Positions 17,969 to 23,617 of a stretch of 64,000 bases of DNA are shown in pieces; within the stretch, counting starts at the first letter, position 1; each line of letters opens with the position of its first letter. The translations under genes and the position numbers were made by a program. Source of the stretch: an uncultured Bacteroidota bacterium (GTDB lineage Bacteria > Bacteroidota > Ignavibacteria > UBA10030 > UBA6906). Under the pieces are notes generated by a model. It made no database searches. It saw only the letters and a program-made list of their open reading frames with translations, and was not told the DNA's origin. The DNA lies in assembly GCA_963700635.1 (NCBI GenBank), contig CAVOYH010000001.1, positions 224,001 to 288,000 of the forward strand. Direction: 5' to 3'.

Positions 17969-18006
17969 GTGTGGGGGCATGGCGGTGAATTGGAATGCCC
18001 CCACAC
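17969..18006 (-). other. 12-bp perfect hairpin immediately 3' of rnpB (processing or termination signal)
   Basis: GTGTGGGGGCAT-N14-ATGCCCCCACAC. Confidence 0.6.
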
Positions 18007-18010
18007 GTGG

Positions 18011-18430
18011 TGCAGGTCTGTAAGCCGAATTCTGTCTTCTTCGCTCTTGCAAGCAGAAGGAGGCAGCCATTTCTCTGGGCCGCGGATTGCTCCTTGGCTC
18101 AAGCGGCCTACCCGAGAGTAACCCCCCGCCGTGGGGCGGGGGACGAGGCGAGCAGCCTCTCCTCTCATATTTGGCCTTGCTCCGGGGGGGTTTATCGTGC
18201 CCCCGGGATTACTCCCGGGGCGGTGAGCTCTTACCTCGCCTTTTCACCCTTACCCTGCAAGCACGCCGCAACGAGTGCAATGTGCGTGCAGGGCGGTATG
18301 TTTTCTGTGACACTGTCCGTTCCCGACCGCTTACGCGGTCAGGCCCCCCGCTGTTCACGGGGCACCCTGCTCTGTGGAGTTCGGACTTTCCTCATCCCGC
18401 GGAATGCGGAACGCAGCTGCCCGACCTGCA
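18011..18430 (-). ncRNA. rnpB: RNase P RNA, bacterial type A
   Basis: Minus strand contains GAGGAAAGTCCGAACTC, ACAGAAAACATACCG, GGTGAAAAGGCGAGGTAAGAGC, GAGCAAGGCCAAAT and ACAGAATTCGGCTTA; P1 is TGCAGGTC/GACCTGCA. Confidence 0.97.
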
Positions 18431-18450
18431 TGTGAGTTGTTGTATGATTT

Positions 18451-18480
18451 AAATTAACACAATCTAATCGAGAGAAGCAA
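18451..18480 (-). promoter_or_regulatory. Putative sigma70-type promoter of rnpB
   Basis: TTGCTT-N18-TAATTT on the minus strand, AT-rich, ~20 nt upstream of the mature RNA. Confidence 0.5.
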
Positions 18481-18492
18481 AAAACGGCGAAT

Positions 18493-18909
18493 TTACGTCT
18501 CCACCGGCTCTCTCGTTTCAATCCCCCGGTTTGCCAGGGCATCAGCATCTCTGTTCTGCTCACGCGGGACGTACCGGAGTACAAATTCATAGGGAGCTTC
18601 TGCACGAAGCCGCTGCACTTCCGAATAGAGCAGCTTGAGTTTTGGATCTTTGACCCGGTAGGTGCCGTTCACCTGCCTGACCATGAGTTCGCTGTCCGCC
18701 TGGACTTCGAGCCGCGTGCATGGCACCGTTGCCAGGCGTTTAAGCAGGGTGACGAGCGCGGTATACTCAGCGATGTTGTTTGTGGCCTTCCCGATGTATC
18801 CCGAGATGGTCAGGAATTCTCCGCCATCGGCTTTCCGGACGATAACGCCGATACCACTGTCGCCCGGATTTCCCCGTGACGCCCCATCGGTCGCCGCGAA
18901 CAGCGTCAT
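18493..18909 (-). CDS. Ribonuclease HI family protein (RNase_HI_like)
   Basis: DGASRGNPG, TNNIAEY, DSELMVRQ, VPREQNRDADALAN. Confidence 0.95.
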   Translation of the reverse strand: MTLFAATDGASRGNPGDSGIGVIVRKADGGEFLTISGYIGKATNNIAEYTALVTLLKRLATVPCTRLEVQADSELMVRQVNGTYRVKDPKLKLLYSEVQRLRAEAPYEFVLRYVPREQNRDADALANRGIETREPVET

Positions 18910-19637
18910 TTCGGGTTTGCGGCAAGTTCGACTATTTCATCGGAAACCAGAATGCGCCCGCATCGTTCACACGTGTACATCCGTTCGCTCTGCCTGAGCT
19001 CGAGCAGCTTCTGGGGAGGAACGCGGTTAAAGCAGCCTCCACATGCGCCCTTCTTGATCGGTACAACGGCCATTCCCTTTTTTGCCTTCCGGATTCGCTC
19101 GTATACGATCAGCTCCGACTTGCTGATTCGCACCACCGCTTTTTGCCGTTCATGCTGGAAATGGAGCTCTTCGTCTTCCGTCAGTTTAGAAACTTCTGCA
19201 AGTGCAACACGCTTCTCCTCCAGAAGGTGTATCGATTCATCGATGTTCTTCTGGAGTTCAGCCATCTCGGTGCGCGCTGTGGTCGCCTGAATCTCGAGTT
19301 GTTCCATTTCTTTTCCCAATCGCACGATGGCTTCACCCGCACTGTCCATCTCCCGCGTGAGCGCGTCGTATTCCCGATTGGTACGGACTGCGAACTGCTG
19401 GCTTTTGTACCTCTCCAGTTTCTGATTCAGGGAGATGATTTCATTGTCAGCATTGTCGCGCATAGCGAATGCCTGCCGCATCGTTTGTTCGATAGCCGCA
19501 TGGCGTTCCTGTTGAGCGGCAAGCTCGGCTTCAAGCTTCTGAACCGCGGACGGCAGATCGCCCTTCTGCTTAAGGAGTTCATCGAGATTCAAGTCTATGA
19601 CCTGAAGGGTGTAAAGATATTGTAGCTTGCTTTTCAC
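18906..19637 (-). CDS. C4-type zinc ribbon coiled-coil protein (DUF164/CT398-like)
   Basis: LQVIDLNLD start, long coiled coil, VRTNREYDAL, ACGGCF...CERCGRIL. Confidence 0.94.
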   Translation of the reverse strand: MKSKLQYLYTLQVIDLNLDELLKQKGDLPSAVQKLEAELAAQQERHAAIEQTMRQAFAMRDNADNEIISLNQKLERYKSQQFAVRTNREYDALTREMDSAGEAIVRLGKEMEQLEIQATTARTEMAELQKNIDESIHLLEEKRVALAEVSKLTEDEELHFQHERQKAVVRISKSELIVYERIRKAKKGMAVVPIKKGACGGCFNRVPPQKLLELRQSERMYTCERCGRILVSDEIVELAANPK

Positions 19638-19662: not shown

Positions 19663-20772
19663 TCACACGATCATAATGGGCGATGTGTTTGTGGTGGCCG
19701 CAGTGACCACGACGCCGGGAGATGACTCATGAAGCGCGTCCCGCAGGTACCGTGTGACGGCCTGCACCACGGGAAGTTCTGTCTCATAATGGCCTGCGTC
19801 AATCAGGGCTATCGATCCGGCAGCGTCATGGAACGTGTGGTACCGGACATCAGCGGTTACAAAGGCATCTGCGCCGGCAGCGATTGCATCATGGAGCAGG
19901 TCAGCGCCCGCGCCGCCACAGACGGCAACAGTCCGGATACGGGATGTGCGCGCGCGTGTGTGCCGCATCGGCCCTGTTTTGAGTTTTGTCCGTACGAGGC
20001 GGAGAAATGCGACAAGCGGAAGCGGGGCGCGAAGCAGCCCGATGGCTCCCATGCCGGTGCCGGGATGCAGGTTTTCAAGTGGATAGACATCATAGGCGAC
20101 TTCTTCATACGGATGGGCTTTTTGCATCGCTTCAATGACGGCCGGGAGGACCCGCTGATCTACCAACATCTCCAGGCGGACTTCTTCAACCTGTTCAAGC
20201 CTCCCGCGCTTTCCTGCCCGTGGTGAGGAGCGGTCATTACCACGAAAGGTGCCGTTGCCCCGGACGCGGAACGAACATGCTTCATAATTGCCGATGATTC
20301 CTCCACCCGCCGCCGTCATCGCCTCCGCTACGCGGTCCACCGCCGTTTCGGGAACGAACGAAACAACTTTGCGATAGGTTCGGGCGTGCCGGGAGAGAAA
20401 GCGGACCTGCTGAAGGCCGAGCTTGTCGGCGAGGGCAAAACTTGTTCCACCGGGTGCAAAATCGAGATTTGTGTGCGACGCGTAGAGGGCTTTTCCGTTT
20501 TTGATCAGGGCCTCAAGAATCCGGCCTTGACCCGTGGAGCTGTCCAGCGTGCGCAGGGGTTTAAATATGAGAGGATGGTGCGTGATAATCAGATCAGCGT
20601 TCCGCCGTGTCGCCTCGCGGACCAGATCTGATGTGGCCTCAAGTGCTACCAGGATTCGTCGGACCGGCGCCTCAGGGTTGCCCACCTGAAGTCCAACATT
20701 GTCTTTCTCCCAGGCGAGGTCCCGTGGGGCCCAGCGTTCCATGAGAGTAGCGACGTCGCTTACCCGCAGCAT
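19663..20772 (-). CDS. Nif3-like dinuclear metal centre hexameric protein with PII-like insert (YqfO type)
   Basis: DNVGLQVG, ITHHPLIF, SHTNLD, AHPYEEVAYD, CGGAG, DAGHYETE. Confidence 0.96.
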   Translation of the reverse strand: MLRVSDVATLMERWAPRDLAWEKDNVGLQVGNPEAPVRRILVALEATSDLVREATRRNADLIITHHPLIFKPLRTLDSSTGQGRILEALIKNGKALYASHTNLDFAPGGTSFALADKLGLQQVRFLSRHARTYRKVVSFVPETAVDRVAEAMTAAGGGIIGNYEACSFRVRGNGTFRGNDRSSPRAGKRGRLEQVEEVRLEMLVDQRVLPAVIEAMQKAHPYEEVAYDVYPLENLHPGTGMGAIGLLRAPLPLVAFLRLVRTKLKTGPMRHTRARTSRIRTVAVCGGAGADLLHDAIAAGADAFVTADVRYHTFHDAAGSIALIDAGHYETELPVVQAVTRYLRDALHESSPGVVVTAATTNTSPIMIV

Positions 20773-20787
20773 GTGTGATCCAGGTAG

Positions 20788-20818
20788 AAAAAAAAGAATC
20801 CCGCCTCTGGGCGGGATC
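20788..20818 (-). terminator. Intrinsic terminator ending ~15 nt upstream of the nif3 start codon
   Basis: Minus strand ATCCCGCC-CAGA-GGCGGGAT-TC-T8. Confidence 0.85.
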
Positions 20819-20943
20819 GTAACGCGTTGTCCGTGTGTGCTTCCGTTCGTCGAAGTTCTTTAACAGTATGCGGTTTTAGTTTCACGTGTGAGCGGCGGAC
20901 AACTCTAAGGTTTTAATTTGGGTCCGATGACATCGCATCGGGA
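20788..20943 (-). ncRNA. Putative uncharacterised structured RNA (sRNA or attenuator leader of the nif3 operon)
   Basis: Bounded by a consensus-like promoter and a terminator; contains two stems and a duplicated A-rich motif; only very short ORFs without an RBS. Confidence 0.6.
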
Positions 20944-20948
20944 CTACT

Positions 20949-20977
20949 AATATACCAAGAGGAGGGGAGAGAAGCAA
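20949..20977 (-). promoter_or_regulatory. Sigma70-type promoter
   Basis: TTGCTT-N17-TATATT on the minus strand. Confidence 0.7.
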
Positions 20978-20985
20978 GATCCCGG

Positions 20986-21664
20986 TCAGAGTCTCGCAAA
21001 ATCGATTTTCTCGAAATTTAAGTCACGAAGCCGGGATATCTTCCCGTTCTACCAGCCCGATCTGTGCGTCAATCGCCTGTACAAGCTTTTTGTCTCCGTC
21101 GCTCAGATTCTGCCGGAGGAGGATATCTGTGCTGATCTTGATGGCTGCCAGCGGGTTGTTAAACTCATGGCAAACCGTGACAACGAGCTCGTGAATGGCG
21201 TCCGTCCGTTTTCTTGCGATCAAGTCGGTTTTGGCCTGTGTGGCAATTCGCTGCTTTAAGTGGACTCGTTCCAGGATATTGATGATTGTGCGTGGAAGCA
21301 CAGAATCAACAGCTTCATCCTTGATGAGGTAGTCTTCCACTCCGTATTTCATGACTTCAATGGCCAGCCGGAAGTCCCGGTTTGAGGTCAGAAAAATGAT
21401 CGGGATGTCGATGTTTCGGGCCCGGATCTCGCGGGTGAGTTCCAGGCCGTTCATCTCGGGGAGATAGTAGTCTACAACCAGCATGTCCAGAGGAGGACGG
21501 GTGTCGAGGAACTCCAGCCCGGAGTGGGGATCCTGTTTCCAGACGGTCAGAAACCTGCGCCCCTGGTACTTCGAGAGAAGGTGCCGGGCCACCGCCATGT
21601 AACTGGCATCGTCGTCAATGAAGAGCAGGCGGATAGGGGGTGAAGATTCCATCTGAGGGTCCAT
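20986..21664 (-). CDS. Response regulator receiver fused to a HisKA dimerisation/phosphoacceptor domain, no ATPase domain; probable +1 frameshift near 21042
   Basis: LLFIDDD, VVDYYLPEMNG, H-box TVCHEFNNPLAAI. As read it stops at 21023; removing one base gives ...VEREISRLRDLNFEKIDFARL* ending at 20986. Confidence 0.8.
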
Positions 21665-21675
21665 AATCGTGCTCA

Positions 21676-21704
21676 AGTATAACATATGTGCCCGAGAGAT
21701 GCAA
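21676..21704 (-). promoter_or_regulatory. Sigma70-type promoter for the REC-HisKA gene
   Basis: TTGCAT-N17-TATACT on the minus strand. Confidence 0.65.
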
Positions 21705-21747: not shown

Positions 21748-21833
21748 CCCCAAGAGTACGGTCATTGTGACCGCAAAAGTGGTGAGAACAGCGGGGACTG
21801 CACTTCACTCACAATTCGCGGGAGAACCTATAG

Positions 21834-22202
21834 ATGGCCAAAAAGAGCAAGATTCTTGTGGTTGACGACGAGGAAGCACTTCGTAGCGTTCTCAGCAGCG
21901 AGTTGATAAACGAAGGATACGAGGTTCTTACCGCATCGGATGGCGATGAGGCCATCACAGAGGTGGACAAGACGCCGTTTGACCTTGTGCTGCTGGACAT
22001 CAAAATGCCGCGCGTGAACGGATTTGAAGTCCTAAAGCACATCAAGGAACGCCCGACCCGGACCAAAGTGGTGATGCTGACAGGTTTCGCGGATCTGAAG
22101 AACGCGATTGAGTCCAAAAAACTGGGGGCCGACGACTTTGTCAGCAAACCGTATGATCTTGTGGATCTGCTGACGACCATCGAACGTGTTCTGAATGAAT
22201 AG
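21834..22202 (+). CDS. Single-domain response regulator
   Basis: ILVVDDE, LLDIKMP, MLTG, FVSKPY; 122 aa. Confidence 0.95.
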   Translation: MAKKSKILVVDDEEALRSVLSSELINEGYEVLTASDGDEAITEVDKTPFDLVLLDIKMPRVNGFEVLKHIKERPTRTKVVMLTGFADLKNAIESKKLGADDFVSKPYDLVDLLTTIERVLNE

Positions 22203-22246
22203 CCGCCATTGCCTCCCACGGTGCACACTCTAAGCGCGGCGGGAGT

Positions 22247-23617
22247 ATGGCAAAAAAATACAACCTCCTCGTTGTAGACGACGAAGCCCCCCTCCGGCTT
22301 CTCCTGGAAAGTGAACTCTCCGAAGCTGATGAATTTGCGGTGGATGTTGCCGCAGATGGCGGAGAGGCGATCAACCTGATCCAGGGAAATGTGTACGATG
22401 TAATCCTGCTCGATGTCCGCATGCCCCGCGTCAGCGGAATAGAAGTGCTGAAGTTCGTACAGGAATACTCTCCGACGACCCAGGTCATTATCCTCACCAA
22501 CTACGCAGACATCAAAACCGCCATCGAGACGATCAAACTCGGGGCGTATGATTTTCTTGCAAAACCGTATGACATAGAAGAGATTTTTAATACGATCCAT
22601 CGCGCTCTTGAACGGCGCGCCCTGTTTATTGACAACAAGCTGATGAAGAGCGAACTCTCCCGCAAAACGGGCGCACATGAACTGATCGGCCAGAGCCCTG
22701 TGTTCCTGCAGATGATCGAGAGCGCAACACGGTTTGCTGAAAGTGAATCGTTTGTGCTCATCCAGGGAGCAAGTGGAACCGGCAAAGAACTTATCGCCAA
22801 CCTGATCCACCGGCGCAGCACACGAAACAACCGGCCCTTCGTTGCGGTCAACTGCGCATCGATTCCCGATGCCCTGCTGGAAAGTGAGCTGTTCGGTCAC
22901 GAAAAAGGCGCATTCACCAATGCTTTTTCCACGAAACAGGGACTCGTGGAAGTGGCAAACGGCGGAACCCTCTTTCTGGATGAAGTCGGTGACATCAGTC
23001 CGGCTATCCAGCCGAAACTCCTGCGGTTTCTGGAGACAGGGGAATTCCGCCGCGTTGGAGGAACGAATCTCCTCACCGTCGATGTACGCGTGGTGAGTGC
23101 CTCAAACAAGGATCTTCGCGAAGAAGTGGCTGCCGGCAAATTTCGGGAGGATCTTCTCTACCGGCTGAATGTGGTGTCGGTGCGTATGCCATCCCTCCGG
23201 GAACGGGCCGACGATATCCCTATTCTTGCCGAATATTTTCTTGAGCGGAAAGCCAAATCGAAAAATATCAAACGTCTCTCGGACGGCGCGCTGGCGTTGC
23301 TCCTGACTCACACCTGGCCCGGTAACGTGCGTGAACTGGAACATGTGATCGAAGGGGCAATCCTCCTCTCCTCGGGAGAGATCATCGAGGAACATGATCT
23401 CCTGATGTACTTCCAGCGTACAGAGCCGAATCTTGTCACTCCCGCACCGCAGAAGACGGCGGGTTCCATTACCCTTGATGAACTGGAACGTCAGCATATC
23501 GAACGGACGCTCCGCGAGCAGCAGTTTAACCGCGCACGCACAGCCCAGGTGCTCGGGATCAGCAAAAAGACACTTTACTTGAAGATCAAGCGGTACGGGC
23601 TGAGGATCGACGAGTGA
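22247..23617 (+). CDS. NtrC-family sigma-54-dependent response regulator
   Basis: Receiver domain, GASGTGKE, ESELFGHEKGAFTNA, FLDEVG, WPGNVREL, Fis-type HTH. Confidence 0.95.
   Translation: MAKKYNLLVVDDEAPLRLLLESELSEADEFAVDVAADGGEAINLIQGNVYDVILLDVRMPRVSGIEVLKFVQEYSPTTQVIILTNYADIKTAIETIKLGAYDFLAKPYDIEEIFNTIHRALERRALFIDNKLMKSELSRKTGAHELIGQSPVFLQMIESATRFAESESFVLIQGASGTGKELIANLIHRRSTRNNRPFVAVNCASIPDALLESELFGHEKGAFTNAFSTKQGLVEVANGGTLFLDEVGDISPAIQPKLLRFLETGEFRRVGGTNLLTVDVRVVSASNKDLREEVAAGKFREDLLYRLNVVSVRMPSLRERADDIPILAEYFLERKAKSKNIKRLSDGALALLLTHTWPGNVRELEHVIEGAILLSSGEIIEEHDLLMYFQRTEPNLVTPAPQKTAGSITLDELERQHIERTLREQQFNRARTAQVLGISKKTLYLKIKRYGLRIDE

Follow-up and report, generated by a model that had tools for sequence, protein, structure and literature searches.

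A conserved mini-peptide open reading frame and intrinsic terminator ahead of nif3 in Ignavibacteria: a candidate leader attenuator of the ribosome-polymerase coupling type

In the pyrBI (pyrL) and rph-pyrE systems of Escherichia coli, the extent of read-through depends on how tightly the ribosome trails RNA polymerase. TnaC, SpeFL, SecM and the drug-sensing resistance leaders act via Rho, by refolding of the mRNA or by exposing a ribosome-binding site. Here we describe an element of ~155 nucleotides (nt) on the minus strand of a 64,000-nt stretch of DNA (hereafter the window; positions 224,001 to 288,000 of contig CAVOYH010000001.1) from an uncultured bacterium of the class Ignavibacteria. 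The element lies directly upstream of nif3, whose product belongs to NIF3/DUF34, a nearly universal protein family with a function that is, to our knowledge, still unknown. Like pyrBI and pyrE, it has a short open reading frame (ORF) before an intrinsic terminator directly ahead of the putatively regulated gene, and no antiterminator hairpin. Its promoter, ORF and terminator are conserved together with the link to nif3, the ORF is under coding constraint, and no other structure is conserved. Through this layout, transcription of the nif3 operon is probably coupled to leader-peptide translation. We give about an even chance to the reading that the element is a short leader mRNA, made up of a conserved mini-peptide ORF and a terminator, which works as a pyrBI/pyrE-like attenuator through ribosome-polymerase coupling. 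From the sequence we infer that the ORF is translated, that the terminator functions and that read-through depends on the ribosome.

A DNA search showed that the region is present in 8 of 41 relatives (own genome counted) and in 5 of 5 members of the genus, and comparison of coordinates placed every match next to nif3. The nif3 gene itself was detected in 65 of the 68 genomes of the family. A covariance model spanning the ORF-to-terminator part, built from 41 of the sequences, was searched over whole genomes without being conditioned on nif3. It matched 60 of the 68 family genomes, and all 60 best matches were located 7-50 nt upstream of the nif3 match. The three extra matches were weak (E = 0.001-0.005), and one of them was the same locus on the other strand. 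Among the eight genomes with no covariance-model match, three had no nif3 match, three had a nif3 gene cut by a contig end, and two carried a divergent copy. The own genome contained a single copy of the element, as determined with nhmmer. The upstream neighbour varied by lineage: 52 of 63 family regions had a REC-HisKA gene there and Melioribacter-type loci a different one. The downstream gene was always nif3.

With nif3 as anchor, 63 family upstream regions were obtained (one only 69 nt long), and 56 of them were parsed automatically. All 56 had a TTGnnn box, a spacer of exactly 17 nt, and then TATATT (55 regions) or TATAAT (one region). The -35 variants were TTGCAT (33), TTGCTT (11), TTGATT (8), TTGCGT (2) and TTGCAA (2). 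A simple sigma-70 consensus scan of the window listed the terminator and did not list the leader promoter, because its -35 box matches TTGACA at only three of six positions and the scan minimum was four. The pattern TTGC[AT]T-17 nt-TATA[TA]T has 30 matches in the organism's 4.2-Mb genome, 29 of them with TATATT, and this suggests a house consensus for its strong promoters. The predicted RNA was 117-159 nt long in the 56 parsed regions. As a separate observation, the RNase P RNA (247 bits), which lies on the minus strand within 18005-18490, just 3′ of the nif3/zinc-ribbon/RNase H-like cluster, has its own TTGCTTCTCTC box at ~18481-18471; the extended -35 sequence is identical to that of the leader promoter.

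The core hairpin of the terminator was found in 60 of the 63 family regions. Covariation is seen at the three pairs that immediately flank the core (A-U/G-C, A-U/U-A and G-C/U-A), and the hairpins averaged -18 kcal/mol in 41 family sequences. In the 56 parsed regions, the distance from the terminator end to the start of the nif3 match was 7-27 nt (median 18). Because the terminator of the window sits just 15 nt before the nif3 ATG, without room for a promoter, transcription of nif3 is possible via read-through alone. An initial annotation of this DNA, made from its letters, had described an unannotated ~155-nt unit with its own promoter and terminator, and had pointed to the lack of promoter space before nif3. 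Both descriptions are supported, with the promoter in 56 of 56 family regions, the terminator in 60 of 63, and the gap at 7-27 nt.

A short ORF, which is unannotated, was present at the corresponding place in all 56 family sequences. Its start codon lay at or within 1-2 codons of the aligned position in every case, with ATG in the aligned column in 41; the remaining starts were mostly GTG one codon later, those of the window's genus included. The family alignment lined up the start codon and a block of ~45 nt. A frame-agnostic coding test was performed on 15 codons of 42 sequences that were <85% identical to each other. Frame 0 had no stop in 12,589 codon comparisons, versus 700 and 1,276 stops in the other sense frames. 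The synonymous fraction was 0.139 in frame 0 (0.075 and 0.062 in the others), and the mean BLOSUM62 score of differing codons was +0.07 (-0.61 and -0.45 in the others). Third codon positions were the most variable, with 8,146 differences versus 6,613 and 6,513. In 500 column shuffles, stops numbered 28.4±12.5 versus 0 observed, the synonymous fraction was 0.088±0.015 versus 0.144, and the BLOSUM score was -0.42±0.12 versus +0.12; none of the 500 shuffles reached the observed stops, synonymous fraction or BLOSUM score. The signal was absent from the next seven codons and from the 45 nt upstream of the start. The first ~14 residues are, in order, basic, Pro, aromatic or His, Thr, acidic and basic, followed by polar, His or hydrophobic residues. 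The initial annotation had missed this conserved ORF, which fills most of the transcript.

The ORF varied in length from 16 to 43 codons across the family. Its stop codon was found 0-17 nt before the hairpin core in 30 of the 56 sequences, inside the hairpin in 2, and past the U tract in 24. Among the 24 ORFs of the last type, 18 ended at -2 to +13 nt relative to where the nif3 match starts; the ORF of the window reads through the hairpin and U tract and overlaps nif3 by 13 nt. The frame in which the ORF tail crosses the hairpin differed between genera, indicating that the tail is not selected as protein. The distance from start codon to hairpin is conserved. An ATG ORF of at least 15 codons starting 68-90 nt before the hairpin centre was present in 32 of 41 non-redundant family sequences (6.4 expected from shuffles), and the same ORF-to-hairpin distance was found outside the own family in 25 of 43 sequences (5.4 expected).

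We propose the following mechanism for coupling. The predicted strong, near-consensus promoter would start a transcript of ~155 nt consisting mostly of the mini-ORF. The hairpin begins ~65 nt past the start codon, and the ORF stops at the hairpin foot or beyond it. A ribosome close behind the polymerase would hold the 5′ arm of the hairpin, and termination would not occur; if the ribosome initiates late or is delayed on the conserved peptide, the hairpin would form and the transcript would end. Termination would be the default and would give a short, abundant RNA, and read-through would take place when the leading ribosome keeps up. Read-through into nif3 and the zinc-ribbon and RNase H-like genes would in this way report the efficiency of leader translation, and an antiterminator hairpin would not be required. 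The conserved peptide may set or sense the speed of the ribosome. In the window's genus, the ORF end 13 nt inside nif3 could also couple translation of nif3 to that of the leader. The principle has been described in E. coli, where, in the accessible part of the source, termination fell from ~90% to <10% when the stop codon upstream of a terminator was shifted from 28 to 5 bp away, an effect that required translation (PMC4824070). According to the same text, a terminator within the first 100 bp of an ORF is efficient unless ribosome and polymerase are coupled, as by pausing in the pyrBI leader (PMC4824070). The principle of tight coupling is stated likewise in the accessible part of a second source (PMC5021804).

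The layout extends beyond the family. The nearest named NIF3 relatives (43-53% identity) came from assemblies labelled Ignavibacteriales, Ignavibacterium and Melioribacter, which makes it probable that the organism belongs to the Ignavibacteria; an automatic scan found a terminator 7-24 nt before nif3 in 10 of 11 such loci, and the eleventh was recognized by eye. The scan was positive in 33 of 40 loci sampled across 17 families of the class; three more terminators were found by eye, and one locus had a hairpin without a U tract. All three loci of family f14 were without a terminator, both by scan and by eye. In family f17, the ORF was exactly 24 codons long in 11 of 11 genomes, ending at the hairpin and starting ~10-15 nt after the predicted transcription start. 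The synonymous excess in f17 was reached by 10 of 500 shuffles and the BLOSUM score by 32 of 500; the zero-stop result in this family follows from how the ORFs were picked. No terminator before nif3 was found in the named Rhodothermales, Bacteroidales and Flavobacteriales loci.

Transfer RNA (tRNA) genes were observed upstream of nif3 in several lineages. In families f13, f25 and f30 (L189, L190 and L191), a tRNA-Ala(CGC) gene follows a TTGCTT-type promoter and precedes the leader, terminator and nif3, and nif3 would be co-transcribed with tRNA-Ala in these lineages. Ten Desulfobacterota/Deltaproteobacteria loci (L085, L087, L110, L119, L122, L131, L140, L142, L148 and L149) have a tRNA-Met(CAT) gene upstream of nif3 on the same strand, with a spacer of ~60-170 nt and an intrinsic terminator between the two (~380-700 in the locus). 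Some of these spacers hold short basic ORFs, which bear no clear likeness to the leader peptide.

The features of the locus are listed in Table 1. The promoter, 5′ hairpin, 8-bp stem, A-rich repeat, terminator and 15-nt gap were all found in the sequence where the initial annotation had placed them.

Table 1. Coordinates of the leader element and of neighbouring genes in the window (position 1 is the first letter of the window).
Feature	Position	Strand	Detail and basis
REC-plus-HisKA gene, upstream neighbour	21023-21685	minus	220 aa, ends at 21023; domain matches
Promoter	20949..20977	minus	-35 box TTGCTT 20977-20972, 17-nt spacer, -10 box TATATT 20954-20949; sequence and family conservation
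Predicted transcription start	near 20944	minus	placed from the promoter boxes
5′ untranslated region, ~58 nt	20886..20944	minus	length and sequence not kept outside the genus
5′-proximal hairpin CCGAUG / CAUCGG	20941-20924 (20941-20936 / 20929-20924)	minus	read in the sequence
Two A-rich 11-mers	20919-20909 and 20882-20872	minus	read in the sequence
8-bp stem GUUGUCCG / CGGACAAC	20903-20896 / 20833-20826	minus	read in the sequence
Short ORF	20760..20885	minus	GTG start 20885, 41 codons, stop TAA 20762-20760; ORF list and family coding signature
Conserved core of the short ORF	20882-20844	minus	roughly codons 2-14; family coding signature
Intrinsic terminator	20788..20818	minus	stem GAUCCCGCC-CAGA-GGCGGGAUU 20818-20797, then C, U8 20795-20788; sequence, fold and terminator scan
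Terminator arms, 9 bp	20818-20810 / 20805-20797	minus	GC-rich; loop CAGA; sequence
Gap from U tract to nif3 ATG, 15 nt	20773..20787	minus	sequence
nif3 (DUF34/NIF3)	19663..20772	minus	first long gene of the downstream cluster; PF01784, ATG at 20772
C4 zinc-ribbon protein gene	18906-19637	minus	downstream of nif3; PF02591
RNase H-like protein gene	18493-18909	minus	downstream of nif3; PF13456 and PF00075

The nif3 product matched PF01784 with E = 5.6e-76 and 256 bits (cut-off 23.4). The REC-HisKA product had no ATPase domain match, and the C-terminus of its gene lies upstream of the leader in 52 of the 63 family regions. A 363-residue ORF at 21809-22900 on the minus strand had no Pfam match at E <= 0.001.

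Several observations weigh against the coupling reading. The hairpin is only ~65 nt from the start codon, and over such a distance a ribosome may rarely catch the polymerase without a pause, according to the accessible text of PMC4824070. A strong promoter followed by a strong terminator would produce short RNA in quantity, as would fit a product that has its own function. The REC-HisKA gene upstream is without a terminator of its own, and the leader terminator could also serve that gene. Read by eye, none of the listed peptides repeats a single amino acid in a run. A profile made from 10 seed peptides recovered only 30 of the 56 family sequences at E <= 0.01, a count that includes the seeds. 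Against this family profile, the peptide of the window had E = 9.7, versus 5.6e-5 and 9.8e-4 for two sister species, and the peptides were very divergent in several genera. The ORF of the window starts with GTG, and no Shine-Dalgarno sequence was seen before it. In the coding test, the antisense frame that shares the wobble position had a similar synonymous fraction (0.142), but it contained 502 stops and had a lower BLOSUM score. A high synonymous fraction is usual in the antisense mirror of a coding frame.

The alternative that survives best, although we regard it as rather unlikely, is a free-standing microprotein gene. An abundant basic peptide of 16-25 residues would then have its own function, perhaps together with NIF3, and the terminator would leak for nif3. 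Coding constraint is common to this explanation and to coupling. The near-consensus promoter and strong terminator imply plentiful short RNA, the linkage to nif3 is constant, as expected of functional partners, and the ORF has a fixed length of 24 codons in family f17. However, only the first ~14 residues are constrained, while ORF length varies over the whole range of 16-43 codons, and the ORF crosses the hairpin and U tract in varying frames in 24 of the 56 genomes, the window included. Because the ORF extends past the terminator in the window's genus, terminated transcripts there would be non-stop mRNAs. Trans-translation tags the products of mRNAs without a stop codon for degradation. The products of such transcripts would thus be tagged and degraded, which argues against the peptide as a useful product in these genomes. 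Nine peptides had no Pfam or NCBIfam match at E <= 10, and alignment of the nine against ~5.8 billion protein clusters found no protein of length 11-72. A complex prediction for the peptide with NIF3 (one job) returned a score of 0.00 and no answer, and is evidence neither way.

A more specific form of the coupling reading, which we consider unlikely, is that the conserved N-terminal peptide is a nascent-chain sensor that slows or arrests translation in the ribosomal tunnel; the trigger would be a small molecule, a metal or the condition of the translation machinery. Arrest would uncouple the ribosome from the polymerase and would thereby switch an intrinsic terminator without an antiterminator. 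If this were true, the element would be a class-wide Ignavibacteria regulator of the NIF3/zinc-ribbon/RNase H cluster, and would supply the first regulatory clue to the function of NIF3 proteins.

A non-coding RNA (a trans-acting small RNA (sRNA), 6S-like RNA, protein sponge or riboswitch) would take the conserved stretch as a seed or binding site and the ORF as incidental. We consider it very improbable. The element has its own promoter and terminator, its conserved stretch is single-stranded in an A-rich context, and 6S RNA (RF00013) was not found elsewhere in the genome. On the other hand, the conserved stretch shows three-base periodicity, no in-frame stops and conservative amino-acid replacements. 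In f17 and Melioribacter-type loci, the ORF starts ~10-15 nt into the transcript and fills it, leaving no room for an aptamer. The structural evidence points the same way, with the terminator as the sole conserved structure. The whole RNA folded with z = -1.9, and 9 of 200 shuffles folded equally well. Its minimum free energy fold consisted of the 5′ hairpin, an open linker, one lineage-specific stem and the terminator, and was not rod-like with a central bubble. In the alignment of the six genus members, pairing reached 64% of cells for the 5′ hairpin, 52% for the 8-bp stem and 87% for the terminator; most positions of the 8-bp stem paired in only two of the six species, that of the window included. 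None of the whole-structure measures in the genus clearly exceeded shuffles (the percentage paired was reached by 117 of 500). The RNAalifold consensus retained the terminator only, both for the genus (6 sequences) and for the family (42 sequences). The A-rich repeat was not kept in the genus alignment, and the 5′ untranslated region was unalignable across the family. The A-rich 11-mer pattern had two matches only in the window, from which the pattern itself was derived; the second copy (20882-20872) corresponds to codons 2-5 of the short ORF. The designation as a structured RNA is thus not borne out by conservation beyond the terminator. The same division applies to the proposal that nif3 upstream regions be checked for conservation and covariation, which upheld the terminator and no interior structure.

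A search for an antiterminator by duplex energies in 41 family sequences found none. The best upstream duplex with the 5′ arm of the terminator averaged -6.8 kcal/mol versus -8.0 kcal/mol in shuffles, its position varied, and on average 66.5 of 100 shuffles did as well. For the 3′ arm, the values were -8.7 versus -8.9 kcal/mol, again at varying positions. The alternative pairings to which a regulatory role had been ascribed were not conserved among relatives and are therefore particular to the species of the window.

At gathering score, the only Rfam match in the whole window was the RNase P RNA (18005-18432), with none in the leader region. A relaxed E-value yielded four weak matches there, of <=17 bits versus cut-offs of 37-56; the best of these sub-threshold matches (e.g., P9, 17 bits versus a cut-off of 43) sit on the terminator hairpin. 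Rfam gave no match in 10 searched Ignavibacteria-type loci and nothing for the element in 20 related loci. The element evidently belongs to no known Rfam family with a match above threshold, as had been supposed. RF00013 had no match at E <= 1 anywhere in the own genome (97% complete); in this lineage, 6S RNA may have diverged too far for the model to recognize it. The signal recognition particle RNA was located on another contig.

Four candidate functions were not supported. A riboswitch found no support, given the lack of a conserved aptamer and of an antiterminator, with the terminator as the sole conserved structure. A 6S RNA was rejected because there was no 6S-like fold and nothing but the terminator was conserved. 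A protein sponge, with the A-rich repeat as a protein-binding pair, was rejected since neither the repeat nor the stems were conserved. Both of the latter had been suggested in the initial annotation. A CACGTG palindrome at a genus-conserved motif was rejected as an operator, since it occurs in a single genus only and the GTG start codon forms part of it. From the earlier suggestion of an attenuator or riboswitch controlling nif3, the cis-acting attenuator survives as a fair reading, linked to nif3, and the riboswitch does not. The microprotein and non-coding RNA explanations are both compatible with attenuation by coupling.

It is also very improbable that the element has no specific function and that its terminator ends the upstream unit (REC-HisKA here, a tRNA in some lineages) and insulates nif3, which would receive a fixed low read-through, with the ORF as a tolerated by-product: the upstream gene without a terminator of its own, the tRNA-Ala before the leader in f13, f25 and f30, and the succession of tRNA-Met, spacer and terminator before nif3 in the ten Desulfobacterota loci fit this explanation, but 56 of 56 regions have a dedicated promoter positioned after the upstream gene and ahead of the ORF, and coding constraint and a fixed distance from start codon to hairpin are unexpected for a by-product.

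Coupling-type attenuation is a kind of mechanism already known; the instance, the host class and the target operon appear to be new. We found no paper linking nif3 with a leader peptide, and a literature search on Ignavibacteria small RNAs gave nothing relevant. In the accessible text of a comparative study of DUF34, COG1579 and COG0328 are among its top-ranked neighbour COGs and fusion partners (PMC8469502). We infer that the zinc-ribbon and RNase H-like genes of the window correspond to these two COGs. The words riboswitch and terminator are absent from the same text, whose supplements may detail the neighbourhoods further (PMC8469502). At this locus, a mini-ORF that carries no annotation and a terminator are firmly linked to nif3 throughout a bacterial class, and the promoter ahead of them is among the best conserved in the genome. 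Should read-through prove dependent on peptide translation, factors that alter it would offer an experimental route to the conditions in which NIF3 is needed, and the element would be an example of antiterminator-free attenuation outside Proteobacteria. The analysis also carries a practical warning: a candidate structured RNA should be checked for three-base periodicity before it is called non-coding.

Compared with known systems, the element resembles trans-acting and dual-function sRNAs in its size of 117-159 nt, its own promoter and its Rho-independent terminator. It differs from them in that the conserved part behaves as coding sequence, no fold is conserved, and the position is fixed before one gene. 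Like the trp, his, leu, thr and pheA attenuators, it has a leader ORF and a terminator upstream of an operon; unlike them, it has no codon run for a single amino acid and no antiterminator pairing, and the downstream genes are not biosynthetic. With the arrest peptides TnaC, SpeFL and SecM and the drug-sensing resistance leaders, it shares conservation at the amino-acid level within a stretch of exit-tunnel size (~14 residues), free variation of the sequence after that stretch, and control of the downstream gene in cis, which is putative here. It departs from them in its predicted use of an intrinsic terminator without an antiterminator, and arrest is only a candidate step. The pyrBI and pyrE leaders belong to other genes in another phylum, and they do not need the sequence of the peptide, which is conserved here. 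In stop position both of their types are represented: the ORF runs through the terminator, as in pyrBI, in 24 of 56 sequences, and stops just before it, as in pyrE, in 30 of 56.

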